64,000 nt of DNA, from the NCBI GenBank assembly GCA_964526745.1, contig CAZGMQ010000005.1, forward strand, positions 10,702 through 74,701, in the 5' to 3' direction. The notes below the pieces were generated by a model, which was not told where the DNA came from, did no database searches, and saw only the letters and a list, made by a program, of their open reading frames with translations. Source of the stretch: an uncultured Verrucomicrobiota bacterium (lineage in GTDB: Bacteria > Verrucomicrobiota > Kiritimatiellia > CAIQIC01 > Lenti-01). Position numbers and translations under genes: made by a program. This document shows positions 3,784 through 17,368 of this stretch, piece after piece; the first letter of the stretch is position 1, and each line of letters begins with the position of its first letter.

Positions 3784-5136
3784 TTGGAATCCATCACAGC
3801 AGGAGACAGACTCATGGCAGGCATTTTTAAAGCATATGACATCCGCGGCATTTATGGCGACTCGCTCACCGACGACATGGCGTTTCGCATCGGTCGTGCC
3901 ATCTTCGCATTCCTCGGCTGCAAGAAGGTCGTGGTGGGCCGGGATATGCGCCCTCATTCCCAACCCCTCTTCGATGCCATGGCCCGCGGCCTCGCCCTGC
4001 ATGGCGTAGAAGTCGTCGACCTCGGTCTCTGCTCGACCCCGATGTCCTATTATGCGAACCAGCTCCTGGGTGCCGATGCTTCGGTCATGATCACGGCTTC
4101 GCACAACCCGGGGCCATGGAACGGATTTAAAATCTGCCGGGCCAACGCCGTCCCCCTATCCGGTGCCACCGGCATCATGGACATTGAGCGCATTGTCATG
4201 GAAGAGGACTTCGCTCCCGAAGCCCCGGCCAAGGGCCCCATCACCAGCTTTGACATCGTTCCGGCCTATGTGGAGCACTTCCGCGCTTTCGCCGACATCC
4301 GCCGCCCGCTGAATGTGGTCGTGGACTACGCCAATGCCATGGGCATCCTCGAGGCCAAGGTCTTCGATGGCCTCTTCGACATCACCCCGCTGTTCGATAC
4401 ACTGGACGGCTCCTTTCCGAACCACGAAGCCAACCCCTTGGATCTAAGCACGCTCGTCGATGCCCAGAAGGCTGTCCGGGCCGGGAAGTATGACTTCGCC
4501 GCCTGTTTTGACGGTGATGCCGATCGCGTCGGCTTCGTGGATGAAAAGGGTGACATCATTCCGATGGATATGATTACCGCCCTTATCGCCTGCACCATCC
4601 TTAAGGAGAAGCCTGGCGCGAATATCTTCTACGACCTGCGATCCTCTTGGTCCGTCAAGGAAGTGATTGAAGAATGCAAGGGGATCCCCTTCATGAGTCG
4701 CGTCGGACACGCCTTCATCAAGGCCCAGATGCGAGAAGCGGATGCCGTTTTTGCGGGCGAGCTGTCTGGCCACTACTATTTCAAGGAAAACTCGTTTGCC
4801 GAGTCTTCCGCTCTGGCCGTTCTGTTCATCGCCAATCTGGTCTCGCAATCCGACCAGACGCTGTCTGAACTGATTGCACCGATTCAGCGTTACTTCGCCA
4901 GCGGCGAAATCAACTCCACCGTCGACGATGCCGCCGCCGTGCTGGAAAAACTCCGCACAAAGTACGCCGATGCCAAGATCATCGAACTGGACGGGCTCAG
5001 CTTTGAGTATCCCACCTGGTGGTTCAATGTCCGCTGTTCCAACACTGAACCGTTGGTCCGCCTGAATCTTGAGGCCAAGACCGAAGGGGAAATGGAAGCC
5101 AAGCGGGACGAAGTTCTGGCGCAGATCAGGGGCTGA
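3784..5136 (+). CDS. Phosphomannomutase/phosphoglucomutase (alpha-D-phosphohexomutase family)
   Basis: Active-site phosphoserine loop TASHNPGPWNGFK, N-terminal IFKAYDIRG, and a GDADR sugar-binding loop. The true start may be the internal Met at 3814. Confidence 0.85.
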   Translation: MESITAGDRLMAGIFKAYDIRGIYGDSLTDDMAFRIGRAIFAFLGCKKVVVGRDMRPHSQPLFDAMARGLALHGVEVVDLGLCSTPMSYYANQLLGADASVMITASHNPGPWNGFKICRANAVPLSGATGIMDIERIVMEEDFAPEAPAKGPITSFDIVPAYVEHFRAFADIRRPLNVVVDYANAMGILEAKVFDGLFDITPLFDTLDGSFPNHEANPLDLSTLVDAQKAVRAGKYDFAACFDGDADRVGFVDEKGDIIPMDMITALIACTILKEKPGANIFYDLRSSWSVKEVIEECKGIPFMSRVGHAFIKAQMREADAVFAGELSGHYYFKENSFAESSALAVLFIANLVSQSDQTLSELIAPIQRYFASGEINSTVDDAAAVLEKLRTKYADAKIIELDGLSFEYPTWWFNVRCSNTEPLVRLNLEAKTEGEMEAKRDEVLAQIRG

Positions 5137-5193
5137 TGTCTCTCCAGAGGCTTTGTTGCGGCATGAGCTGAGCAAAGGACTCCATCTCCTAGC

Positions 5194-5224
5194 AGACCGG
5201 GTCGTTTGACCCGGTCTTTTCTCT
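5194..5224 (+). terminator. Rho-independent terminator between convergent manB-like and murB genes
   Basis: Hairpin GACCGGGTC-GTTT-GACCCGGTC followed by TTTTCTCTC. Confidence 0.5.
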
Positions 5225-5244
5225 CTCACGCCCCCGCCAGGACC

Positions 5245-6138
5245 CTACACATCGCCCCAGAAACGGACTTCAGGCACCAGTTCGATCCCAAACCGGTCTC
5301 GAACCGCTGTTGCCATCCGGGTGGTAAGCACAGCCACATCTCGTGCGGTGGTCCCCTCTTCGGCAATCACAATATTGGCATGGTTCTTGAATACATGGGC
5401 TGCTCCTTCATGCATCTCTTTGGCACCGGCTTCTTCCAGAAATTTACCGGCGGCCTGGCGATGACCGCCCTCCACCGCAGGCGGCAGATTTTTGAAGAAA
5501 CTCCCCGCAGTCGGCATCACCCGCCAATCCGGATGCTTCTCCCTCCGTACTGCCAGAATATCTTCCCGAGCGGATTGTAACTGTTCGGGATCCCCCTGTT
5601 CTAGCCGGAACCAGACGCGTGTAATCACACCCTCGGACTCCTGCAGCGAGGAGGTGCGATATCCAAATTCCAGAGCCTCGCGAGGCAGGATGTGAATTTC
5701 ACCTTCCGTCGAAACCAGCTCGACTCCCTCCAGCACATCACCCAGGGCGGCCCCGAAGGCACCGGCATTGCCGCAGACCCCCCCGCCGACGGTCCCGGGT
5801 ATTCCTGAAGCAAACCCCAATCCAGCCAGACCTTCGGCTGTTGACAGTTTGGAGCAGACATCCAGCGACAGTCCGGCCCCGACACAGACCCCGTCTTCCA
5901 CACGGGTGAATTCCGGGGCGTCAGCAACCACTCGTAGAACGGCCTCGGGAATCCCCTCGTCCGCCACCAGCAAATTCGAGCCCCCTCCCATCACACGCCA
6001 CGGAATTCCTGATGCTGTCCAGCCACGGAGAATCTCCGACACCCGGGCGGCATCCGATGCCGTAACAAGCTCACGACAGGGCCCGCCCAGACGGAACGTG
6101 GTAACCTGATTGAGACATTCCTTCATATAGTTGAGCAT
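5245..6138 (-). CDS. murB: UDP-N-acetylenolpyruvoylglucosamine reductase
   Basis: FAD-binding domain signature FRLGGPCRELV...GGGSNLLVADEG, and a MurB C-terminal domain. Confidence 0.85.
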   Translation of the reverse strand: MLNYMKECLNQVTTFRLGGPCRELVTASDAARVSEILRGWTASGIPWRVMGGGSNLLVADEGIPEAVLRVVADAPEFTRVEDGVCVGAGLSLDVCSKLSTAEGLAGLGFASGIPGTVGGGVCGNAGAFGAALGDVLEGVELVSTEGEIHILPREALEFGYRTSSLQESEGVITRVWFRLEQGDPEQLQSAREDILAVRREKHPDWRVMPTAGSFFKNLPPAVEGGHRQAAGKFLEEAGAKEMHEGAAHVFKNHANIVIAEEGTTARDVAVLTTRMATAVRDRFGIELVPEVRFWGDV

Positions 6139-6385: not shown

Positions 6386-7327
6386 ATGATGTCCATCCTG
6401 ATCTTCATTCTCGGAATTGCCTGTCTCTGGGCCGGCACCGAAGCCGTGATGCGGCGCATCCCGCGAATCGCCAGTTGGCTTCGCGTCTCGCCACTGATCG
6501 TCACGGTCCTGCTGCTGGCTATCATGACCTCGCTGCCCGAGTTTTGCGTCTCCCTCTTTGCCTCCCTGCGCGGTCAGCCGGCGGGGGCCGTCGGAAATAT
6601 CGTTGGTTCTAATTTTGTGACCCTGACTTTTGTAGCCGGTCTCTGCGCCCTGTGGCGGCCGATTGAGGTCGGGCCGACCATCCGGGACCGCGAATCCGGG
6701 TGGATGATTCTGACGTCATCCCTGCTGCTGATTCTGGCCATGGATGGCATGCTCAGTCGCACCGACGGGCTGATCCTCCTGCTGGCCTACATCCCATATT
6801 TCTATGCCACCCTCAAGGATGCCAAAGCGCAACGGACGGCCGCCTCAGCCACCTCACAAGGAAAACCGCTGGCCGATTTGTTTTTCCTCGTTGTGGGTTT
6901 GGCCCTGATCATTCTGGGAGCCCACTGGATTGTGGATCACGGCAGCGCGCTCGCGCGACGGCTGGGCATGAATGATCTGCTGATTGGTGTGACGTTCTAT
7001 GCCTTCGGCACCTCTCTCCCTGAGCTCGCCATTGCCCTGGGTGCCGTCATGCGCCATCAGGCGGATGTGACGCTGGGGGAGGTATATGCCTCCAATATCT
7101 TCACCGGTCTGGTGGTGATGGGAGCTCTGTGCGTGATTTCCCCTCTCCCCGTCGATGCCATCGTGGTCCACCGGGATCTGCCGCTGCTGATCCTGGCCGG
7201 GGTTCTCCTGCAGATGTTTGTGACCAGCGGTGGGCGGTATGTCCGTTCCGAGGCCCTCATCATGATCGCCCTCTATGGCCTGTTTCTGGCCGCCCAGTTC
7301 ATGGGATTTCACATTACGCTGCCCTGA
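6386..7327 (+). CDS. Na+/Ca2+ exchanger family membrane protein (CaCA, YrbG-like)
   Basis: Two alpha-repeat signatures GTSLPE(F/L) (at about aa 47 and about aa 208) in a 313-aa protein with about 10 TM helices. Confidence 0.8.
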   Translation: MMSILIFILGIACLWAGTEAVMRRIPRIASWLRVSPLIVTVLLLAIMTSLPEFCVSLFASLRGQPAGAVGNIVGSNFVTLTFVAGLCALWRPIEVGPTIRDRESGWMILTSSLLLILAMDGMLSRTDGLILLLAYIPYFYATLKDAKAQRTAASATSQGKPLADLFFLVVGLALIILGAHWIVDHGSALARRLGMNDLLIGVTFYAFGTSLPELAIALGAVMRHQADVTLGEVYASNIFTGLVVMGALCVISPLPVDAIVVHRDLPLLILAGVLLQMFVTSGGRYVRSEALIMIALYGLFLAAQFMGFHITLP

Positions 7328-7396
7328 CTGTAACCATTGGGGAACCGGGGGCGACTGAATGGATTGAACGGGAAAACATCCAACTGGAGAAGCCCA

Positions 7397-7825
7397 ATGA
7401 AAACCAAGAGCACCCAAATCCTAATCCTCCTTCTGACCGGCGCGGTACTGGCCGGTTCGGCATTCGCCGCCCCGCAGGTGACCCGCAAACGGGTGAAGCG
7501 ACAAACTGTGCGACAACCGTCGCGGCATCCCAGTCCCTATGGACGACACCAGCAGAAGGGAATGCGGCACTATGTCGCGGAACGTGGCACCAGCTATACG
7601 GTTGTGAATGGTTATGCCGTTCCGGTTCCCGCACGAGTCATCTACACCACACCCACGCCTGTATATGTAGGTCCGACCGTTGTGACCACCACCTATTACA
7701 CGCCGGGACAAGCCTATACCCCCGCCTACTGGAACTTTTATGCCCCGCCCCCTCCGAATCCACGGCCTGCCATCGTCTATACCCCCTATGTCCGGCCGGG
7801 CATCAACTTCAACATATCGTTCTGA
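7397..7825 (+). CDS. Hypothetical secreted protein (Tyr/Pro-rich)
   Basis: Internal Met gives the signal peptide MKTKSTQILILLLTGAVLAGSAFA. No recognisable domain. Confidence 0.4.
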   Translation: MKTKSTQILILLLTGAVLAGSAFAAPQVTRKRVKRQTVRQPSRHPSPYGRHQQKGMRHYVAERGTSYTVVNGYAVPVPARVIYTTPTPVYVGPTVVTTTYYTPGQAYTPAYWNFYAPPPPNPRPAIVYTPYVRPGINFNISF

Positions 7826-7913
7826 ACGGACTGAGCTCTTGAACGCGCCGCTGTTCTATGAAAATGTAGCCGACAGCTTCCGGGCCCGCGCCGGAACCCC
7901 TGCAGGCCTTCAA

Positions 7914-8531
7914 ATGAGCAAAAGCAACAGTCCATCTCGCGACGAAACCTTCGTATTGGAGGCGGTCCGGCGCGTTGTGGACGGCGATACCGAGGCGTTC
8001 TCGGTGATTCTGATGGCACACCAGAAACTGATTGCGGCCGATCTCTCCCGCCGGCTCCCTGCCCAGGATGTGCAAGAAGTCGCCCAGGATGTGTTCCTCA
8101 AGGCCTTCCGGTCGCTGGCGTCCTTTCGAGGGGAAGCCCCCTTCCGGATCTGGCTGTTGCGGATTGCCCGCTTCACCGCCATGGATTTCTGGCGGAAACG
8201 ATATCGTCAGAAAGAGCGCTCGTTCAGCGATCTCGATGAAGCCGCAGTCTTTCACATCGAAGCCGCCCATCAGGAGCAAGTCGATACCGCCCTTGAGAAA
8301 AAGGAGTCCCGGGCCGCCGCCCGCCACTGGCTCAACGCGGCTCTCGCCCACCTCTCCCCAAATGACCGGGCCGTCATCACCCTCGTGGAGTTGGAGGATT
8401 TTTCGATGGAAGAAGCCGCCCGGGAGTTGGGCTGCGGTCTGTCCGCCGTGAAAGTGCGCGCCTTTCGCGCCCGCCGCCGCTTGAAGGTCATCCTCGAAGA
8501 GATTCGCGCGAAGAAAGAAACGACATCATGA
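7914..8531 (+). CDS. RNA polymerase sigma-70 factor, ECF subfamily
   Basis: Region-2 motif FLKAFRSLASFRGEAPFRIWLLRIARFTAMDFWRKR and region-4 HTH (LVELEDFSMEEAARELGCGLSAVKVRAFRARRRL). Start taken at the internal MSKSNS Met. Confidence 0.8.
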   Translation: MSKSNSPSRDETFVLEAVRRVVDGDTEAFSVILMAHQKLIAADLSRRLPAQDVQEVAQDVFLKAFRSLASFRGEAPFRIWLLRIARFTAMDFWRKRYRQKERSFSDLDEAAVFHIEAAHQEQVDTALEKKESRAAARHWLNAALAHLSPNDRAVITLVELEDFSMEEAARELGCGLSAVKVRAFRARRRLKVILEEIRAKKETTS

Positions 8532-8869
8532 AAACCGAAACGCCCCCATCCTGGAATGAGTTGCGGACAGCCTACCGGCCGACCGGGCTTGAACTGGACA
8601 CCGCCGCCATCATGGAGACCATACGCCATGAAGCAACGGTTCATCCACTGCAACCGGCCCGGCGCGGACCTGTTGTTGCAATCCCGGTCTGGGCCTGCGC
8701 CGCCGCCGCCTCACTGGCCCTGCTGGCCACAGTCAGCGTTGTGGGCCACTCGATCACGGCCGCTGACCACACCATCAGCCAGGCTTGGATACAGGACATC
8801 GAGCCGGAACAGTTTGAATCCACCTTCCTGAGCTACACCGCCACCCCGCGTGAAGGGAACGAAATATGA
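8528..8869 (+). CDS. Putative anti-sigma factor (single-pass membrane)
   Basis: Start overlaps the sigma-factor stop (ATGA). 113 aa with one central TM (VVAIPVWACAAAASLALLATVSVV). Position and size are typical of ECF anti-sigma factors. Confidence 0.5.
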   Translation: MKTETPPSWNELRTAYRPTGLELDTAAIMETIRHEATVHPLQPARRGPVVAIPVWACAAAASLALLATVSVVGHSITAADHTISQAWIQDIEPEQFESTFLSYTATPREGNEI

Positions 8870-9328: not shown

Positions 9329-10396
9329 ATGAACACACCCCTTTTACGGCTTACACTGGTTGGACTCTTTGCACTGACTTCTGTTGCTCTGGCACAACCA
9401 TCCTGTACCCACACCACGACCAGTGCGCCCTGCTGCACCACAGCCGCCCCGCCGCCCGTCGCACCGATTCTGGCATCCGAATTCCTAGGCTGGACCCACA
9501 CCTTCCACCTGCAAAACAATCGCGCCCAGGCCGTCCTAGTACCCGCTATCGGTCGTCTGGTCCACTTCGCCCCCAGCGACGGTCAAAGCCCCTTCCGTCT
9601 CGAAGCCTCCCTGCAGGGGAAAACCCCTCCCGCCGGCGAGCCGTTCTTCAACATCGGCGGCGACTGGCTCTGGCCCGTCTCGCAGGCCCGCTGGGCTTCC
9701 TTTTCCACGAGTGGCAACGACTGGCCGCCACCGGCTCTCCTAGCCGACCTTCCCTGGGCCTGTTCCGCCTGGACCGATGCCGATGGCGCTCAATGCGCCC
9801 TGCTCACCCGCGACTATGGCGCCCCGCTGAACATCCAAGTTTCGCGCCTCTTCCGGCTCGAACCCGATTCTGCCGTCCTGATTGTCCAGCAACGCATCGA
9901 GCGCACGGCCGCCTCCGACATTCCCGTCGTCTTGTGGAACATCAGTCAGATCGCGCAGGCCGAGCAGATTGTCCTGCCGGTCGAAGACGACTCCGCCTTC
10001 CGCGGCGGTCTCAAAGCCCTGATGGGCCGAAAGCCCTCGAAGAAGCAGCTCATTCCCTGCACTTCCTCGGCCGTCTATCAAGTCAGCGAAGGCGCCGAAA
10101 CCAAGCTCGGTTCTGACTCCCCCCGCGGCTGGATCGCCGCCGCCAAGGGAACAAATATCATTTTTGAATCGGTGGCCAACACCAACGAAGGCGACTATCC
10201 GGATGGCGGGTGTGTGGTCGAAGTGTATTCCAACCAAGGGTTGGGCTACTCCGAGATTGAAACCCTCAGCCCTGAGGTGAACCTCGCGCCCGGCACCGTC
10301 CTGGAAAATACGCTGCGAATCGAAATCGCCGAAACAAAGCGACCTCTGACCGGCTGCCCGCTGTCCGGCTTCGTCCGCACCCTCGCCGGAGAATAA
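9329..10396 (+). CDS. Hypothetical secreted protein
   Basis: Signal peptide MNTPLLRLTLVGLFALTSVALAQ followed by a Cys/Thr/Pro-rich linker. No domain recognised. Confidence 0.5.
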   Translation: MNTPLLRLTLVGLFALTSVALAQPSCTHTTTSAPCCTTAAPPPVAPILASEFLGWTHTFHLQNNRAQAVLVPAIGRLVHFAPSDGQSPFRLEASLQGKTPPAGEPFFNIGGDWLWPVSQARWASFSTSGNDWPPPALLADLPWACSAWTDADGAQCALLTRDYGAPLNIQVSRLFRLEPDSAVLIVQQRIERTAASDIPVVLWNISQIAQAEQIVLPVEDDSAFRGGLKALMGRKPSKKQLIPCTSSAVYQVSEGAETKLGSDSPRGWIAAAKGTNIIFESVANTNEGDYPDGGCVVEVYSNQGLGYSEIETLSPEVNLAPGTVLENTLRIEIAETKRPLTGCPLSGFVRTLAGE

Positions 10397-10488
10397 GGCC
10401 TCTTTCAGGTGCTCTCCGCATCTCGCAGTTGCCGAAAACAAAATCTGGATTATCCGAAAGGAAAAACCATTCTGAATAAGGAGTTGCC

Positions 10489-10677
10489 ATGAACGTTACC
10501 GTTGATCAGGAATTGTGTATCGGATGCGCCGCGTGCGAAGGCACCTGCCCCGAAGTGTTTGAACTCAAGGACGATAAATCTCAGGTCATTCTTTCCCCGG
10601 TTCCTGAAGCGCTTCGTTCCAGCGCGATGGATGCCGAAGAAGCCTGCCCCGTAGGAGCTATTTCCCACGAGGGCTGA
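10489..10677 (+). CDS. Ferredoxin (single-cluster, Cx2Cx2C...CP type)
   Basis: CIGCAACEGTCPEVFEL...EACPVGAISHEG in 62 aa. Preceded by RBS AAGGAG. Confidence 0.8.
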   Translation: MNVTVDQELCIGCAACEGTCPEVFELKDDKSQVILSPVPEALRSSAMDAEEACPVGAISHEG

Positions 10678-10741
10678 ATCCTGAATTGACTTCAAACGCG
10701 CCTGCTCCCATCATTAAATCGGTCGGAAAGGAGGCGTAAAG

Positions 10742-11125
10742 ATGCCGATCCAGTTTCAATTTGATTCAACCCGGAATATTCTGCGGATCACAATTCAGGG
10801 GGCATTCAGCCTGGCCGGCTTTCAAAACACCATGGAGCAGATTACGCAGTCCGAGGAATACTCCCCGGATATCCATGCCCTCTGGGACTTGCGGGAAATG
10901 GATTTCTCCACAATCGATGAAGCCTATTGGCGGAAGATTCTGGAGATCCGGAAAAAGCATCCGCAGCGAAGTGCCGCCCGTCTGGCCCATGTGGTCCATG
11001 GCGATTTTGCCTATGGCATGATGCGGATGTATCAGATTCTGTCGACCCTCCATTCGAACGAACTGAAACAACAAGTGATGGTCTTCAAGGATATCGATGA
11101 AGCGGAACAGTGGATTCTGACCTGA
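10742..11125 (+). CDS. Hypothetical 127-aa protein, paralog 1 (ALWDLR...AARLAHV...GMMRMYQIL family)
   Basis: RBS GGAGG upstream. Strong similarity to the protein at 12363-12746. A DLRxxDFSxID segment is loosely reminiscent of STAS/anti-sigma-antagonist folds; this is an inference. Confidence 0.6.
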   Translation: MPIQFQFDSTRNILRITIQGAFSLAGFQNTMEQITQSEEYSPDIHALWDLREMDFSTIDEAYWRKILEIRKKHPQRSAARLAHVVHGDFAYGMMRMYQILSTLHSNELKQQVMVFKDIDEAEQWILT

Positions 11126-11167
11126 ATGCATACACGGAAACGGATTCAACCCCAAGGAGGAGCCCCC

Positions 11168-11356
11168 ATGAAATTCAAAGTTGACCTCAAACTCTGTGCA
11201 GGCGGCGGTGCCTGCGAAGCCACCTGTCCGGAAGTGTTTGAACTACCTGGAGATCAGGCCCGCGTCAAACTGGACCCCGTGCCGGCAGAGCTGGAAGCCC
11301 GCGCTCTGGAAGCCGAAGCCGCCTGTCCCGTCGGCGCCATCTCCCACGAAGGATAA
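11168..11356 (+). CDS. Ferredoxin (second copy)
   Basis: MKFKVDLKLCAGGGACEATCPEVFELPGDQARV...EAACPVGAISHEG, a paralog of the ferredoxin at 10489. RBS GGAGG upstream. Confidence 0.8.
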   Translation: MKFKVDLKLCAGGGACEATCPEVFELPGDQARVKLDPVPAELEARALEAEAACPVGAISHEG

Positions 11357-11361
11357 GCCAG

Positions 11362-11934
11362 TTGGAAACGCTTCTTGGCATGGCCGTCGGGATTGGACTC
11401 AGTGCCGCCTGCGGATTCCGGATCTTTATTCCGATGCTGGGCTTGAGCCTGGCCGCCTTTTCTGGACACATCACCCTGGGCGCCGGATTCGAATGGATCG
11501 GCAGCGGATCTGCGCTGGCGGCCTTCAGCACCGCCAGTGTGCTTGAAATCGGAGCCTATTACATCCCCGTTCTGGACAATCTATTAGACACCATTGCTAC
11601 ACCCGCGGCCGTGGTCGCCGGGATCATTGTCACCGCCTTTATGGTGGGTGAGATGTCCCCATTTTTGAAATGGAGTCTGGCCCTCATTGCCGGGGGCGGC
11701 GTGGCCGGAGTGGTCCAGAGCGGAACCGTGGTCCTGCGTACCGGCTCTACCGGCACCACCGGCGGCATAGCCAATTCACTTCTTTCAACCGTGGAAATGG
11801 CTGGCTCCATTGCAACGACAGCTCTGGCCATCCTCCTGCCACTGGCCGGACTGCTACTGGTCGTCTGGATCTGCATCAAGATGATCCGCATTCTGAGGCG
11901 GGCCTCTCTCCTTGCTAAATCTCCTCTCAGATAG
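11362..11934 (+). CDS. DUF4126-like polytopic membrane protein
   Basis: 190 aa, Gly/Ala-rich, about 5 TM helices (GIGLSAACGFRIFIPMLGLSLAAF...). Confidence 0.55.
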   Translation: METLLGMAVGIGLSAACGFRIFIPMLGLSLAAFSGHITLGAGFEWIGSGSALAAFSTASVLEIGAYYIPVLDNLLDTIATPAAVVAGIIVTAFMVGEMSPFLKWSLALIAGGGVAGVVQSGTVVLRTGSTGTTGGIANSLLSTVEMAGSIATTALAILLPLAGLLLVVWICIKMIRILRRASLLAKSPLR

Positions 11935-12362
11935 AATCCCTCATTCTCTCTATCTCAGAGCAAGAAAATCTCCAACATTCATCCATTTGGGGCCATCCCT
12001 ATTTTGCCCCATATTCACCAATTTTTGCCCTTTTAGGCACATTTCTAGTCATTTCAGTACATTTTTCTCTTCTCTCCTTCTGAATGTAATGATCAATACT
12101 TTCAGCCTCTGGTCTCCTGAAATTATTCAGGCCATCAAAAAGGTGGTTGTTGTGAAATTCGCATCAAAAGCTGAAAATGCTATTTTTGCTATATAATATG
12201 ACTATTATTTTACAAGCGGGCATATTCTCACCTATCGTTTGTTATTAATACTTGCCAATAAGGACTATTTTGCCTATTGTTCGGTTTGTATTAGGTTTTC
12301 AAGAGATAATCATTCAGACGCCTGGCGTCAGGACCTCATCATTTCACATCAAGGAATACGCC

Positions 12363-12746
12363 ATGCCCGTTATACATCGATATGACGAAAAGAAAAAAAT
12401 TCTCTTCGTAACCCTCAAGGGGACCTTCACCCTCGCAGAATTTAAATCATCAATGAGCCGGATTTCCGGATCTCCCATGTATCCAGCCGACACAAATGCG
12501 CTGTGGGATTTGCGGAGCCTGGATTTCGCCAGCATCAATGTGGACTTCTGGCAGCAGCTTTTCGCCATCCGCCAGCAGCATCCCGAACATCAAGCAGCCC
12601 GCCTGGCCCATGTCATCGGCGATGATTTTGCCTTCGGGATGATGCGGATGTATCAGATCCTCGCAAGCACCAGCAAGAACAACCTGGTAAAACAATTGAT
12701 GGTCACCAAGAGCTACGAACAGGCGGAGGAATGGCTGCAGTCCTGA
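12363..12746 (+). CDS. Hypothetical 127-aa protein, paralog 2 of the 10742 gene
   Basis: NALWDLRSLDFASI...HQAARLAHVIGDDFAFGMMRMYQILAS aligns along its full length with the 10742 product. Start taken at the internal MPVIHRY Met. Confidence 0.6.
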   Translation: MPVIHRYDEKKKILFVTLKGTFTLAEFKSSMSRISGSPMYPADTNALWDLRSLDFASINVDFWQQLFAIRQQHPEHQAARLAHVIGDDFAFGMMRMYQILASTSKNNLVKQLMVTKSYEQAEEWLQS

Positions 12747-12875
12747 CCGCCCGCGAAGCCGCCCGCCAAAGACTCGCTCTTCTTGCCCTCCTGCTGGATG
12801 CCAGGATCTGCATCGAGATGAGCCGTGTGCTGGCCTGGACTCGTCTCTTTGCGAAGACCTAAGTTTGAATCAGAT

Positions 12876-13745
12876 TCAGACTGGAGGTTCAGACGTGGAG
12901 TTCCAGCGCTCCGCTTCCAGGCGGGCCATGCCGCGGGTAGAAGAGATCGCAATCCAGACACCGCAAGCGAGGAAGGGAAGCGAACCGAACACAATCCAGT
13001 TCGGGTTCAGAATACTGCGACTCTCCGCAGGACTCACGACGGCAAATCCCAACACAAGAGCGATCGTGGAAAGACAATATGCGATTTGGAAAACAAGAAG
13101 CAGACGAAGACGGCCGCGCAGGAATGAGTTCATTTTCGCGGCAAAACGTTCAGGGCGGTCACTTCTGAGGTCCACCGGTTCCTGAACGATCTTGAACATC
13201 CATTTAGTGAGAAATCCATTCATTCCAACACAGAGCAGAAAGACCATTCCGGCGAAGGCCCCTGTTCCCGAAAGAAGAAAGGCTGTTCCCTGTCGAACCA
13301 GAAGATAGGCCAATCCGACAAGCAGAACAGCATACGGTATGGCCAGCACCCAGACCGGCAGAAAGTCGCTCATCTTCCGTACCTTCAAGTCCGCCATCCG
13401 GGCCCCCTGCTGTCCAAGTTCCTTCATCCGCTTTTCCCGGACGCGATCTTTCAGCCCCTGCCATGTGGGTTTGCCCACTTTATAGGCATATCCCATGTAC
13501 AGAGCCATGCCCATATAGAAGCCGGGGAAGTTGAGTTTGAACCCGAGCCATCTGGGCAGGAAAAACACCAGTAAGAAGGCCCAGGCAAACATCCCAGCAA
13601 TCACGAGGGGGTGCGACTGAAGCTTCAGCACTCTTTCGACTTTCTCGTCACTGGCTGTCTTCAACTTGTGCAAGGTCAGAACCTCAACCCCAATAACACT
13701 GAGCATAATTCCCATCGCATACATCATTTCCAATATGGTTCTCAT
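12876..13745 (-). CDS. Hypothetical polytopic membrane protein (partner of a YtrA/GntR-type regulator)
   Basis: 289 aa with about 8 TM helices, immediately downstream of the GntR-family gene. Confidence 0.5.
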   Translation of the reverse strand: MRTILEMMYAMGIMLSVIGVEVLTLHKLKTASDEKVERVLKLQSHPLVIAGMFAWAFLLVFFLPRWLGFKLNFPGFYMGMALYMGYAYKVGKPTWQGLKDRVREKRMKELGQQGARMADLKVRKMSDFLPVWVLAIPYAVLLVGLAYLLVRQGTAFLLSGTGAFAGMVFLLCVGMNGFLTKWMFKIVQEPVDLRSDRPERFAAKMNSFLRGRLRLLLVFQIAYCLSTIALVLGFAVVSPAESRSILNPNWIVFGSLPFLACGVWIAISSTRGMARLEAERWNSTSEPPV

Positions 13746-13775
13746 CTGTTTTCTCCGTTTGTTGCAGCTACCCTT

Positions 13776-14162
13776 TTAGAGTAACTGCTCGATTTCTTTT
13801 TTAAGAAGCTCCTGTGTCTCCGGAAGCGACAATCCAACCAACTGCGCCTGCGTAAGCGCATCTCGTAGCATCCTCCGGATCTGTTCCCGGTCTGCCGAGG
13901 TCACCTTGGCGTGCACCTTCCCAAAATCTCTGACATAGGTTTTTCGACCATGGGCCACAAACAGGAGGCCCATCTCGGACAACTGCCTGTATGCCCGGGC
14001 CACCGTGTTAAAATGGACGCCCAGGTCCCCGCCCAACTGACGAGCAGATGGAAGCTCCTGACCCGCAGGAAGGCGTCCTGAAGCAATTTCCCCTTTTAAG
14101 GCGTGAACGACCTGCTCCACCAGCGGCTCTTGGCTCTCTAAATCAATCTGTATCATACGCAC
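13776..14162 (-). CDS. GntR-family (YtrA-like) transcriptional regulator
   Basis: wHTH motif LPSARQLGGDLGVHFNTVARAYRQL in a 128-aa protein. GTG or nearby ATG start. Confidence 0.75.
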   Translation of the reverse strand: MRMIQIDLESQEPLVEQVVHALKGEIASGRLPAGQELPSARQLGGDLGVHFNTVARAYRQLSEMGLLFVAHGRKTYVRDFGKVHAKVTSADREQIRRMLRDALTQAQLVGLSLPETQELLKKEIEQLL

Positions 14163-14275: not shown

Positions 14276-15418
14276 CTATATTTGGAGCCAAGCGGTAGCC
14301 TTTTCGGCGCGTTTGCCCTTGATTCCAAGGTCTCCCAGATTCCGGACGCGTCCCCCGCCCTGTCGAGCTTTCAGGATACGGCGAACAGAAATAGGCCCCA
14401 GACCGGGTACGCGCAACAACTCAGCTTTATCCGCCCTGTTCACGTTGATGGGAAAGTGTTCGGAGTGACTATGAGCCCACGCCTCTTTGGGATCCATATC
14501 GAGCGGCAGATTGCCCTGCGGATCAAATCCGATTTCATCAGAAGTGAAGCCGTACTTTCGCAATAGAAAATCGGTCTGATACAGGCGATGTTCCCTTGTG
14601 AGAAGGTCGGCATTGCTCACAGTGCTCTGCTCGCCGGGCAGACTGGGATCACCCAGCCCGCGCTGATACGCGCTGTAGTAGATCCCGTGCATGCCCAACC
14701 GGTCATAGAGCCCCCCCATATACTTCACAAGTTCACGATCGGTCTCGTCGGAGGCCCCGACCACAAACTGAGTGCTGGTCTTAACGCGGGCATAGCGCTC
14801 GCCTTTGGCGGTCAGCGCGGCGATGCGCTTGAGCGGTCGGATGATCGATTGCAGATAGTCTTTTCGGGTGGTGAGTTTCGCGAAGTGCTTCTCGCCGGCG
14901 GTCTCGATATTGAGGGATACCCCTGACGCCAGAGATACGGCGCGATCAATCGCGGCATCGGAGGCCCCGGGAATGATCTTGAGATGCAGGATGCCGCGGA
15001 AGCGTTCGCGAGTTCTAAGAATCTCGGCGGTGGCCAGCATGCGCTCCATCGCAGCATCGGCATTGCCGCAAATGCCGCTGGTGAGAAAGAGTCCGATGAC
15101 TTTTCGCGAGCGCCAATACGGCACAAAGGCGCGGACGATTTCTTCGGGGCTGAGCGAACAGCGGCGCGTTGTGTCGTGTCCGGCCCTCAAGGGACAATAC
15201 TTGCAATCGCTGGAACAGACATTCGAGACCAGCGTTTTGAACATCAGGCTCTTGCCGCCGCTCTGGAGCGTGACGGGATAAAGCCAGCGATCATCCTCCC
15301 CGCGCGTACGCGGGGCTTCCGAGCCGCAGGAGGCGGCACAGGACAGATCGTACTGCGCATCGGCCGAGAGGATATCCAGCTTTTCCTGTATGTCGGGAGC
15401 TGTCTGGATGAAGGCCAT
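14276..15418 (-). CDS. Radical SAM protein with C-terminal helix-hairpin-helix (putative DNA modification/repair radical SAM family)
   Basis: CSSDCKYC (Cx3Cx2C) cluster motif. C-terminal HhH ELLRVPGLGPISVRRILKAR. Confidence 0.7.
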   Translation of the reverse strand: MAFIQTAPDIQEKLDILSADAQYDLSCAASCGSEAPRTRGEDDRWLYPVTLQSGGKSLMFKTLVSNVCSSDCKYCPLRAGHDTTRRCSLSPEEIVRAFVPYWRSRKVIGLFLTSGICGNADAAMERMLATAEILRTRERFRGILHLKIIPGASDAAIDRAVSLASGVSLNIETAGEKHFAKLTTRKDYLQSIIRPLKRIAALTAKGERYARVKTSTQFVVGASDETDRELVKYMGGLYDRLGMHGIYYSAYQRGLGDPSLPGEQSTVSNADLLTREHRLYQTDFLLRKYGFTSDEIGFDPQGNLPLDMDPKEAWAHSHSEHFPINVNRADKAELLRVPGLGPISVRRILKARQGGGRVRNLGDLGIKGKRAEKATAWLQI

Positions 15419-16444: not shown

Positions 16445-17368
16445 TCAAGCTATCGCGACGCGGTTGCGACCTTCGCGCTTGGCCACATAAAGGGCCGAAT
16501 CCGCGCGGCGGAGCAAAGTCTCGCCGGGCTCTGTGGGACAAAACTCGGCTACGCCGGCGCTAATGGTCACGCTACGGTCCTTCAGTAATTCCGCTTGCTC
16601 CACAGCTTGGCACATTCTCTCGGCCACTTCCCGTGCTTTATTCCTGGGAGTTTCGGGCAGCAAAACAACAAATTCTTCGCCGCCGTAGCGAAAGGCCGTA
16701 TCGGTTGTCCGCACCGTTTGGCTCAGAATGGCCGAAAGTTCAGCCAAAACCCGGTCCCCCACGGTATGCCCTAGTGTGTCGTTGATTTTCTTGAAGTGGT
16801 CCGCATCGATGATAATCAGCGACAGGGGGCGCCCATAGCGAACCCCCCGCTGCACTTCAGATTTGAGTTGTCCTTGAAAGTGCCTATAGTTGAATAGCCC
16901 CGTCAGTTCGTCCCTGATCGCCAGGCGTTCCAGATCTGCAACAAGGCGCTCTTGGATCTCTGCTTGATGCCGCATTTCGCGCGCCTGCTGAATCCTCATG
17001 GTTAATTCGGGTATCCGGATGGGCTTCACGATGAAATCGGCTGCCCCATGCGCCACCGCCGTCTCGTGGGAGTATGTGGAATCGCCCCCTGTGATGAGAA
17101 TGACGATGCAGGAGGTTGTCTTGACGAAATGTCGCATGACCTCGATGCCGCTGATGTCCGGCAAATTGATATCCAACAAAACGATGTCGATGGAACCTTC
17201 TGCTCCCTTTCGTATCGCTTCCTCTCCGGACTTGGCCACGGATACCTCATACCCGGCATCTGATAGTGCGGGGGCAAAGAGATTCAGAATCAACTGATTG
17301 TCGTCTACGATAAGAATGTGCAATGGTGCGATATTCATATATTCCTCATCTGTTCCTAACATGTTCAT
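16445..17368 (-). CDS. Response regulator with GGDEF output domain (diguanylate cyclase, PleD/WspR-like)
   Basis: N-terminal REC (ILIVDDNQ..., conserved Asp region DIVLLDINLPD). C-terminal RYGGEEF active-site motif. Confidence 0.8.
   Translation of the reverse strand: MNMLGTDEEYMNIAPLHILIVDDNQLILNLFAPALSDAGYEVSVAKSGEEAIRKGAEGSIDIVLLDINLPDISGIEVMRHFVKTTSCIVILITGGDSTYSHETAVAHGAADFIVKPIRIPELTMRIQQAREMRHQAEIQERLVADLERLAIRDELTGLFNYRHFQGQLKSEVQRGVRYGRPLSLIIIDADHFKKINDTLGHTVGDRVLAELSAILSQTVRTTDTAFRYGGEEFVVLLPETPRNKAREVAERMCQAVEQAELLKDRSVTISAGVAEFCPTEPGETLLRRADSALYVAKREGRNRVAIA

Follow-up and report, generated by a model that had tools for sequence, protein, structure and literature searches.

Gene content and layout of the locus

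Within the window, by which we mean the whole 64-kb stretch of DNA analysed here, a cluster of five genes encodes two small ferredoxins (Fd1 and Fd2), two copies of a protein that we call X (X1 and X2), and a membrane protein of the DUF4126 family, with an AT-rich island in front of the last gene (Table 1). The open reading frames of all five were confirmed at the positions given in an earlier note on this DNA, and the upstream ECF sigma module that it described is present, with Sigma70_r2 and r4_2 domains found. The first four genes are separated by gaps of only 64, 42, and 5 nt (Fd1/X1, X1/Fd2, and Fd2/DUF4126, respectively). This arrangement is not an assembly artefact, since at least three longer contigs that are independent of one another, coming from different samples and assemblers (L001 to L003), repeat the gene order; shorter contigs (L004 to L006) agree with it over their reach. 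All five genes are under purifying selection, with dN/dS values of 0.03 to 0.05 for Fd1, 0.10 for Fd2, 0.10 for DUF4126, 0.12 to 0.27 for X1, and 0.26 for X2. No additional paralogs occur elsewhere in the 64-kb window, and a 43-aa ORF at 12731-12862 has no counterpart in relatives.

Table 1. Features of the ferredoxin/X/DUF4126 cluster and of its upstream context, in window coordinates
Feature	Position	Strand	Description and basis
ECF-type promoter-like motif TGTAACC-N16-CGACT	7329..7356	+	5' of first ECF-block gene; context
ECF sigma factor (context)	7839..8531	+	Sigma70_r2, r4_2, and r4 domains; gene call from identical contig L001
Putative membrane anti-sigma gene	8528-8869		113 aa; overlaps ECF sigma gene
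Fd1 sigma70-like promoter element TTGCCG-N16-TATCCG	10429..10456	+	Conservation; putative function
Fd1	10489..10677	+	62-aa monocluster ferredoxin, CxxCxxC...CP, [4Fe-4S]-type motif; PF13370
X1	10742..11125	+	127-aa STAS/SpoIIAA-fold protein, divergent PF11964 member
Fd2	11168..11356	+	62-aa divergent ferredoxin paralog, CxxGxxC...CP, [3Fe-4S]-type motif; PF13370
DUF4126	11362..11934	+	190-aa polytopic membrane protein, TTG start; PF13548
AT-rich intergenic island	11935..12362	.	428 nt; GC scan
X2 sigma70-like promoter element TTGCCA-N17-TATTGT	12252..12280	+	Promoter scan, conservation; putative function
X2	12363..12746	+	127-aa STAS-fold paralog of X1

Two ferredoxin paralogs and a coupled membrane protein

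At 61% identity (E = 4e-22), Fd1 and Fd2 bear out their earlier description as paralogs. Both score well above the cutoff of 24.5 bits for PF13370 (57.2 bits for Fd1 and 47.6 bits for Fd2), and PF13459 is also matched strongly. The motif C.G.GAC that had been proposed as common to the two masks the key difference between them, CIGCAAC (CxxCxxC) in Fd1 versus CAGGGAC (CxxGxxC) in Fd2; these motif classes distinguish [4Fe-4S]-type from [3Fe-4S]-type ferredoxins (PMC6237146). By HMM score above cutoff and cluster motif, Fd1 is a monocluster ferredoxin, as is Fd2 with the [3Fe-4S]-type variant. Judged from these motifs, the cluster would be [4Fe-4S] in Fd1 and [3Fe-4S] in Fd2, so that the two would be soluble electron carriers that differ in potential. 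Fd1 is 89 to 95% identical to the ferredoxins of four related lineages (L088, L091, L181, and L184). Fd2 shares 59 to 65% identity with every Fd1-type protein and 89% with the ferredoxin of lineage L175, which retains CxxGxxC, and its ATG at 11168 is preceded by the ribosome-binding site GGAGGAG. The pair constitutes a clean natural case of [4Fe-4S]-motif and [3Fe-4S]-motif paralogs retained side by side.

In their length of about 60 aa and their cluster motifs, both proteins resemble the Fer4_13/Fer4_15 monocluster ferredoxins, which include Thermotoga/Pyrococcus-like [4Fe-4S] proteins and the actinobacterial [3Fe-4S] partners of P450s. Unlike the P450 partners, however, they have no P450 or other obvious redox partner adjoining, and their partner gene in this clade is that of the DUF4126 membrane protein. 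The latter is a full-length member of PF13548 (E = 4e-47; score 160.7 bits, cutoff 27.5 bits; residues 8 to 179 on model positions 2 to 174 of 175), and its N terminus, METLLG, is kept in homologs. It starts directly behind the Fd2 stop codon, with a junction (GAAGGATAA, 5 nt, and TTG) that is common to the window, L088, and L091; the 5-nt spacing between ferredoxin and DUF4126 is invariant in five lineages, and DUF4126 is probably translationally coupled to Fd2. The structural model of DUF4126 is poor (pLDDT 67.6, pTM 0.42). More than 4,000 matches at E < 1e-10 make this a large family, and the two papers found to mention it do so in passing. An upstream, putatively coupled ferredoxin is found only in this clade, and this pair, seen in five lineages, is the sole contextual clue to DUF4126 found here.

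X is a STAS-fold protein allied to PF11964

With 46% identity over 125 aa (E = 9e-48), X1 and X2 are paralogs, as had been recognised earlier, and the loose resemblance to STAS proteins suggested at the time is supported by both profile and structure. We conclude that X has a STAS/SpoIIAA fold and probably belongs, as a divergent member, to PF11964 (SpoIIAA-like, DUF3478). X1 exceeds the gathering cutoff of 25 bits for this family (28.1 bits, residues 13 to 125 on model positions 1 to 105 of 106), X2 remains under it (16.8 bits), and 33 of 80 X family members match PF11964 at E < 0.01. An AF2 model of X1 with a pLDDT of 95.3 was compared with known structures by Foldseek, a check that the earlier note had proposed, and the best match was the PF11964 structure 2q3l_A (E = 1.5e-5, TM 0.59 to 0.60, 16% identity). 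Further matches were 2ook and, at TM 0.5 to 0.66 and a probability of about 1.0, the antagonists SpoIIAA, RsbV, RsbS, and mycobacterial ones. Sequence searches of the PDB with X1 and with the family profile returned nothing, and NCBIfam has no entry matching X or DUF4126.

The X family comprises 1,795 representatives, counted as clusters at 50% identity, which come from many phyla and are nearly all standalone proteins of about 125 aa. No domain fusions were found, and longer members that could be taken for fusions were rejected as having mis-called starts. The best match to X in the GTDB-representative set is 54%. Members share a signature of YD, WDxR, DF, PxR, GxxRMY, F, and W with many conserved charged residues, and the most conserved positions include D8, D49, R51, D54, R70, R76, D88, and R95; alpha2 and alpha3 carry the conserved aromatic or Met residues F55, F/Y91, M93, M96, and Y97, together with G92. 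X therefore represents a large cross-phylum subfamily of standalone STAS-fold proteins that PF11964 catches only in part.

The Shewanella structures of PF11964, 2q3l and 2ook, resemble X as standalone proteins of about 125 aa with an alpha/beta SpoIIAA fold, and like X they are without the phosphoserine of SpoIIAA (PMC2954212 for the structures). X differs from PF11964 in that X2 and most other family members fall under the Pfam cutoff and in having its own residue signature. For 2ook and 2q3l, the structure authors proposed a hydrophobic cavity that opens and closes between alpha2 and alpha3, together with membrane association, and these proteins have been suggested to carry a small nonpolar molecule in a CRAL-TRIO-like manner (PMC2954212). 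X may be a nonphosphorylated binding module, which would contact a small ligand or a protein surface through its alpha2/alpha3 face, as has been suggested for the PF11964 structures; as far as sequence can tell, this role would differ from that of a partner-switching antagonist.

History of the cluster in close relatives

The ancestral layout is a single [4Fe-4S]-type ferredoxin, orthologous to Fd1, followed 5 nt on by DUF4126. X is optional in the relatives: one copy is found in L088, and none is present at the locus in L181 and L091, which have the ferredoxin-DUF4126 pair alone. In L088, X lies within about 2 kb of this pair, with a DUF3089 gene between DUF4126 and X. X2 is 76% identical to the L088 protein and is the ortholog of this single X gene, the two forming a clade in 200 of 200 bootstraps of the X tree; the X1-type subclade also takes in proteins of L007 and L175. 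The window and at least lineage L175 have an extra X1-Fd2 segment between Fd1 and DUF4126; Fd1 retains the ancestral 5' flank and Fd2 retains the ancestral 3' end and the junction with DUF4126. The locus is not the duplicated two-gene cassette that it was first taken for, since Fd1 and X2 are positional orthologs of single-copy genes of the relatives and X1-Fd2 is an extra segment.

Sequence comparison indicates that the X1/X2 and Fd1/Fd2 splits are old. A recent tandem duplication of a ferredoxin-DUF4126-X unit with loss of one DUF4126 was considered and dropped: the divergence within the X1/X2 and Fd1/Fd2 pairs far exceeds that of orthologs from different lineages, and X1-type and Fd2-type copies occur in other lineages.

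The AT-rich island and transcription signals

The AT-rich island noticed earlier is confirmed, with a GC content of 0.33 to 0.40 (minimum 0.333) against a window mean of 0.584, and it is the only 300-nt stretch with GC below 0.40 in the 64 kb. Its sequence is identical in L001 to L003. The 3' part, about 140 nt, is the conserved upstream region of X2 and aligns with the sequence upstream of X in L088; the 5' part, about 215 nt, is unconserved and pyrimidine-rich. We rejected the island as an RNA gene (no meaningful Rfam match; fold z = -1.5, not significant) and as a mobile remnant (single copy, with no repeat copy in the window), and no remnants of the L088 DUF3089 gene or of the 130-aa gene of L181 were found in it.

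Fd1 and X2 each appear to have a conserved sigma70-like promoter element of their own. The block upstream of Fd1, TTGCC[GT]-N16-TAT, is invariant in five lineages while its flanks vary, and the X2 element is conserved in L088 as TTGCCA-N18-TATGTT along with an AAGGA ribosome-binding site. We infer that Fd1-X1-Fd2-DUF4126 would form one operon transcribed from the conserved sigma70-like promoter and that X2 would be transcribed separately, from a promoter inside the AT-rich spacer. Expression under the upstream ECF sigma, for which a promoter motif search had been suggested, is not supported by that search: the strict ECF motif has a single match in 64 kb, at the ECF block (7330-7355), whose own motif, TGTAACC-N15/16-CGACT, is shared by the window, L088, and L091 although the spacer varies in sequence, and the relaxed ECF-type motif has 23 matches versus 23.5 expected, none of them preceding Fd1 or X2. 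Transcripts that start in the ECF block may read through into the cluster.

Linkage across genomes and interpretation of the cluster

Linkage of ferredoxin, X, and DUF4126 is found in close relatives only, and its retention across distant genomes was not found. Across 80 X loci from other phyla, no small ferredoxin and no DUF4126 gene lies within ±6 kb of X, the three closest out-of-clade X homologs likewise show no such linkage, and none of 80 other DUF4126 loci repeats the pairing seen in this clade, with a ferredoxin directly upstream or X within ±3 kb. DUF4126 relatives at 71 to 72% identity are without a ferredoxin, and the neighbors of X in other phyla are heterogeneous, with no lipid-related theme. 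These counts do not bear out the earlier proposal of an undescribed module in which X and a membrane protein recur alongside a ferredoxin; moreover, X, which was then unrecognised, is of a known kind, PF11964, with no conserved ferredoxin linkage, which is essentially the outcome that the earlier note had named as refuting its proposal.

Since the pairing is confined to one narrow group of uncultured bacteria, it looks like local gene shuffling. The cluster is thus probably lineage restricted, having arisen by old duplications and local rearrangement of three known families, and not a conserved functional module. What seemed to be a repeat of a ferredoxin plus an unknown protein would reflect these old duplications and rearrangements within one lineage. 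However, the genes are tightly packed and co-oriented within the clade, X1-Fd2-DUF4126 recurs in L175, and the X gene of L088 is close to its ferredoxin-DUF4126 pair, and a functional link specific to this clade therefore keeps some plausibility.

Such a link could take the form of a clade-specific unit, a reading that we regard as unlikely, in which electrons pass from the ferredoxins to a process located at or within DUF4126 and the X proteins are cytoplasmic adaptors or regulators of DUF4126. The invariant ferredoxin-DUF4126 junction of five lineages, the presence of X1 inside that operon in two lineages, the purifying selection on all genes, and the maintenance of Fd2 despite its divergence to a different cluster type are consistent with this unit. 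By analogy, STAS proteins regulating membrane transporters would offer a precedent: STAS domains regulate SulP/SLC26 transporters, and MlaB acts likewise for MlaFE. However, linkage is absent outside the clade in either direction, ferredoxin-DUF4126 occurs without X in two lineages, close DUF4126 relatives do without a ferredoxin, and adjacency in a syntenic clade is expected from common descent alone. That the ferredoxin or ferredoxins, X, and DUF4126 of this one clade make up a membrane-associated electron-transfer unit, with X docking the [3Fe-4S]/[4Fe-4S] pair onto DUF4126, is quite doubtful; if true, it would give the first functional handle for DUF4126 and for the PF11964-allied X family.

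An improbable alternative assigns the ferredoxins the part of bystanders and sees X as a CRAL-TRIO-like, membrane-docking carrier of small nonpolar molecules whose place beside DUF4126 reflects a role in lipids or membranes. X is nearest to PF11964 in both structure and sequence, the cavity and membrane association proposed for 2ook and 2q3l (PMC2954212) point the same way, as do the aromatic and Met residues in which alpha2 and alpha3 are rich, and in L088 DUF4126 and X are separated by a DUF3089 gene. However, the many charged residues among the most conserved do not suggest a purely nonpolar pocket, the match to 2q3l has a TM score of only 0.6, with 16% identity, X neighbors in other phyla lack a lipid theme, and for PF11964 itself a carrier function is no more than a hypothesis drawn from structure.

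By far the least probable reading, and one already largely refuted, takes X1 and X2 as anti-sigma-factor antagonists in a partner-switching circuit over the upstream ECF sigma, with the ferredoxins as redox input. It draws on the STAS fold, on the anti-sigma antagonists among the structural matches (TM 0.55 to 0.66), and on the ECF sigma block 2 to 3 kb upstream, and X does share fold and size with SpoIIAA, RsbV, and RsbS. Unlike these proteins, and contrary to the "partner-switching-like" label given earlier, X has no conserved phosphorylatable Ser/Thr at the SpoIIAA site: positions 56 and 57 before alpha2, equated with that site by secondary structure, carry Ser or Thr in 45% and 35%, respectively, of the 80 members compared and read Ala-Ser in X2 and Ala-Gly in the L088 protein. 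Only 1 of 80 family members matches PF01740 (STAS), and no HATPase_c kinase or PP2C phosphatase is present among the genes called on the identical contig L001 from -10 to +5 kb or near the locus in L088, L091, and L181. Moreover, a putative membrane anti-sigma gene of its own already overlaps the ECF sigma gene, L181, L091, and L184 have the ECF block but no X with it, and no neighbor of any kind recurs among the X homologs at 80 other loci.

Two neighbors of X were considered in their own right and set aside as coincidence. A small GntR gene adjoining X recurs in one other organism only (L176/L177), and an RR-GGDEF gene lies near X in the window and in L008, which we attribute to chance because GGDEF-type neighbors appear in only 2 of 52 loci with clustered neighbors.

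Linkage of X with ferredoxin and DUF4126

Scanning species-representative genomes for the X family, we collected 80 loci spanning Nitrospirota, Gemmatimonadota, Desulfobacterota, Myxococcota, Bacteroidota, Chloroflexota, and other phyla; at none of them did the 6 kb on either side of X contain a relative of Fd1, Fd2, or DUF4126 (E<=1e-3, E<=10, or cluster-motif regex). The source organism is absent from these GTDB species representatives: X1 itself conforms to the scan pattern, but its top match there has 54% identity. Recurrent neighbors in this set are confined to close clades, and the linkage is also absent at the three closest out-of-clade X homologs (44-47% identity). The six closest homologs of other phyla lie beside RR-GGDEF, RACo, sulfotransferase/CotH, CitMHS plus PEMT, or M16 peptidase genes, with no theme shared among these neighbors. 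In the reverse test, 80 metagenome loci of DUF4126, a large family, at 50-65% identity had heterogeneous neighbors, with ferredoxin directly upstream in none and X within 3 kb in none. Thus, the module of X, ferredoxin, and membrane protein proposed in the earlier note did not survive the co-occurrence test in either direction: the ferredoxin/DUF4126 association of X is confined to one narrow clade, and X is optional there.

X2 has an RR-GGDEF gene about 3.7 kb away, and in L008 the X gene, a Nitrospiraceae sequence that is the nearest homolog beyond the clade (54% identity), has another (6753-7643) at 365 nt. Since GGDEF-type neighbors occur at only 2 of the 52 X loci with clustered neighbors, this proximity is probably coincidental.

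Family and predicted fold of X

X1 matches PF11964 ("SpoIIAA-like") end to end at 28.1 bits (gathering score, 25), and X2 falls under that score at 16.8 bits. A word-indexed search with X returned next to no matches; at E<=1e-3, an exhaustive profile search retrieved 1,795 cluster representatives (215 at E<=1e-10), almost all of them standalone and close to 125 aa long. Domain fusions in longer members were rejected, the extra length coming from miscalled starts. PF11964 matches 33 of the top 80 members and PF01740 (STAS) matches one. The family signature comprises Y7-D8, S37, W48-D49-x-R51, D54-F55, R70, P74-x-R76, A82, D88, G92, R95-M96-Y97, F115, and W124.

No solved structure was detectable by sequence search. 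An AlphaFold2 model built from an 80-sequence alignment was highly confident (pLDDT 95.3, pTM 0.88), and its top Foldseek match in the PDB was the PF11964/DUF3478 protein 2q3l (E=1.5e-5, TM 0.6), followed by SpoIIAA, RsbV, RsbS, and mycobacterial antagonists (TM 0.5-0.66). The loose STAS suggestion made earlier is therefore right at the level of fold, but its partner-switching part is not: antagonists such as SpoIIAA and RsbV are defined by a phosphorylatable Ser/Thr where helix alpha2 begins, whereas in X this residue is not conserved (S/T at positions 56 and 57 in 45% and 35% of members, respectively). X is STAS-fold in the model, belongs to a known but functionally uncharacterized family, and is not of the partner-switching type.

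Gene content and history of the locus

The ORF map, alignments, and Pfam bore out the gene positions, paralog pairs, and upstream ECF sigma factor described previously. X1 and X2 share 46% identity (E=9e-48) and Fd1 and Fd2 share 61% (E=4e-22); both ferredoxins are of the monocluster type (PF13370/PF13459), and the membrane gene is DUF4126 (PF13548, E=4e-47). At least three longer, independent public contigs (L001-L003), obtained from different samples and with different assemblers, have the identical gene order, and shorter contigs (L004-L006) are consistent over their extent, so the arrangement is not a chimera. The 64-kb window holds no further paralogs of the cluster genes.

Features of the X locus and its surroundings
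Feature	Position	Strand	Length	Remark
ECF-type element	7329-7356			TGTAACC-N16-CGACT; upstream of 142-aa gene heading ECF sigma block
355-aa gene	9329-10396		355 aa	signal-peptide-like N-terminus
Fd1	10489-10677	+	62 aa	ORF map and sequence
X1	10742-11125	+	127 aa	ORF map and sequence
Fd2	11168-11356	+	62 aa	GGAGGAG ribosome-binding site ahead of start
DUF4126	11362-11934	+	190 aa	TTG start, 5 nt past Fd2 stop
AT-rich gap	11935-12362		428 nt
X2	12363-12746	+	127 aa	ORF map and sequence
Small ORF	12731-12862		43 aa	overlaps X2 stop codon; annotated as gene on public contigs
Membrane protein and GntR/YtrA-like regulator	12876-14162	-	289 aa; 127 aa	between X2 and radical-SAM gene
Radical-SAM gene (rSAM)	14276-15418	-		HHH_3/ComEA-like region at C-terminus
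RR-GGDEF gene	16445-17368	-

Several metagenomes (JGI 3300025586, JGI 3300005917, GCA_900162855.1) contain contigs that are identical or nearly so. The small ORF finds no match in L088 or the other loci and is probably spurious. The window also encodes H+-PPase, FeoB, GH57, several radical-SAM enzymes, and very large secreted proteins, a content that, as a guess, would be compatible with an anaerobe.

Layouts of related loci, read from the gene surroundings of close relatives of DUF4126 and ferredoxin
Locus	Layout
Window	Fd1 - X1 - Fd2 - DUF4126 - [AT island] - X2 - (289-aa membrane protein, GntR) - rSAM
L175	X1-type - Fd2-type - DUF4126
L088	Fd - DUF4126 - DUF3089 - X - rSAM
L181	Fd - DUF4126 - unrelated 130-aa protein - rSAM
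L091	Fd - DUF4126 - GH18
L184	Fd - DUF4126 (contig end)
L007	X1-type - rSAM
L092, L182/183	DUF4126 without ferredoxin or X

Fd1 shares 89-95% identity with the lone ferredoxin of L088, L091, L181, and L184; Fd2 is 59-65% identical to these and 89% identical to that of L175. X2 shares 76% identity with X of L088, and X1 shares 68-72% with the L007 and L175 proteins. A neighbor-joining tree pairs X1 with L007 (bootstrap 196/200) and X2 with L088 (200/200), and these subclades lie almost as far from each other as from homologs of other phyla. In DNA alignments, Fd1 retains the ancestral 5' flank, and Fd2, which retains the ancestral 3' end, still meets DUF4126 at the ancestral GAAGGATAA+5nt+TTG junction; this argues for an extra X1-Fd2 segment. 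As aligned, the locus is the ancestral Fd-DUF4126 pair with this segment inside, rather than a duplicated two-gene cassette of ferredoxin and X, as had been supposed. Judged by gene content, X is dispensable at the locus, because L181 and L091 have Fd - DUF4126 without it. Purifying selection acts on each of the five genes (dN/dS 0.03-0.27 against orthologs).

We favor, with some reserve, a lineage-specific cluster of known families that would have come from old duplications and local rearrangement, in which Fd1-X1-Fd2-DUF4126 would be an operon and X2 a separate gene. That the genes, each under purifying selection in a clade where X is optional, form a clade-specific functional unit is unlikely, and a version with a specific adaptor is more doubtful still. 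Overall, the genes and paralogs observed earlier stand, as does the STAS suggestion at the level of fold, but partner switching and a conserved redox module do not, the linkage being limited to one clade; what remains is known families in a lineage-specific arrangement, with X in an already known family.

Between DUF4126 and rSAM there seems to be a variable slot, occupied by DUF3089 and X, a 130-aa protein, or X2, membrane protein, and GntR, depending on lineage. The membrane protein has no Pfam or NCBIfam match, and its pair with GntR is absent from the same position in L088, L181, and L007. The radical-SAM gene, convergent with X in L088 and L007, is related to TIGR03916 ("putative DNA modification/repair radical SAM"; 277 bits, cutoff 343.5). 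Upstream of DUF4126 in L092, intergenic short DNA repeats (5066-5376), several frames of which give "FQGLE/FQTLE ... SKAWK/SKVWK" peptides, suggest a small repetitive element.

Predicted ferredoxin cluster types and upstream elements

Ferredoxins with CXXCXXC(X)nCP are [4Fe-4S] and those with CXXA/GXXC(X)nCP are [3Fe-4S], two classes with different potential ranges (PMC6237146). Fd1 and every Fd1 ortholog have CxxCxxC, and Fd2 and its relatives (L175, P0289, P0290) have CxxGxxC; the single motif given for both earlier captured their paralogy but overlooked this split. Since the motif classes differ, the paralogs probably differ in cluster type.

Some 35-60 nt ahead of the ferredoxin start, five lineages share an unchanged TTGCC[GT]-N16-TAT element between variable flanks. 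Over ~140 nt at its 3' end, the AT-rich island aligns with the X upstream region in L088; this part contains TTGCCA-N17/18-TAT(T/G)(G/T)T and an AAGGA ribosome-binding site. We infer that the ferredoxin- and X2-upstream elements may be regulatory. An ECF-type element of textbook form (TGTAACC-N15/16-CGACT) belongs to the ECF block; three lineages (the window, L088, and L091) share it, with varying spacer sequence, and it probably serves as the block's autoregulated promoter. The strict motif has no second copy in the 64-kb window; the relaxed motif occurs there at chance frequency, with none upstream of Fd1 or X2, so the ECF-dependent expression that the earlier note proposed to check finds no support in the motif search. 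The stretch separating the 355-aa gene from Fd1 showed no intrinsic terminator, so read-through into Fd1 is possible. The 355-aa protein, 80-86% identical among relatives and always encoded between ECF block and ferredoxin, has no Pfam match and resembles the TTE1925 mutarotase family only weakly (40.5 bits, cutoff 550).

The island is the sole 300-nt stretch below 40% GC in 64 kb (minimum 0.333, mean 0.584). It gave no meaningful Rfam match, significant RNA fold (z=-1.5), repeat copy, or remnant of genes present in relatives. Its 5' half (11935-12149), unconserved in relatives and without ORF support, has a pyrimidine content of 63% on the + strand and a GC skew that falls to -0.46.
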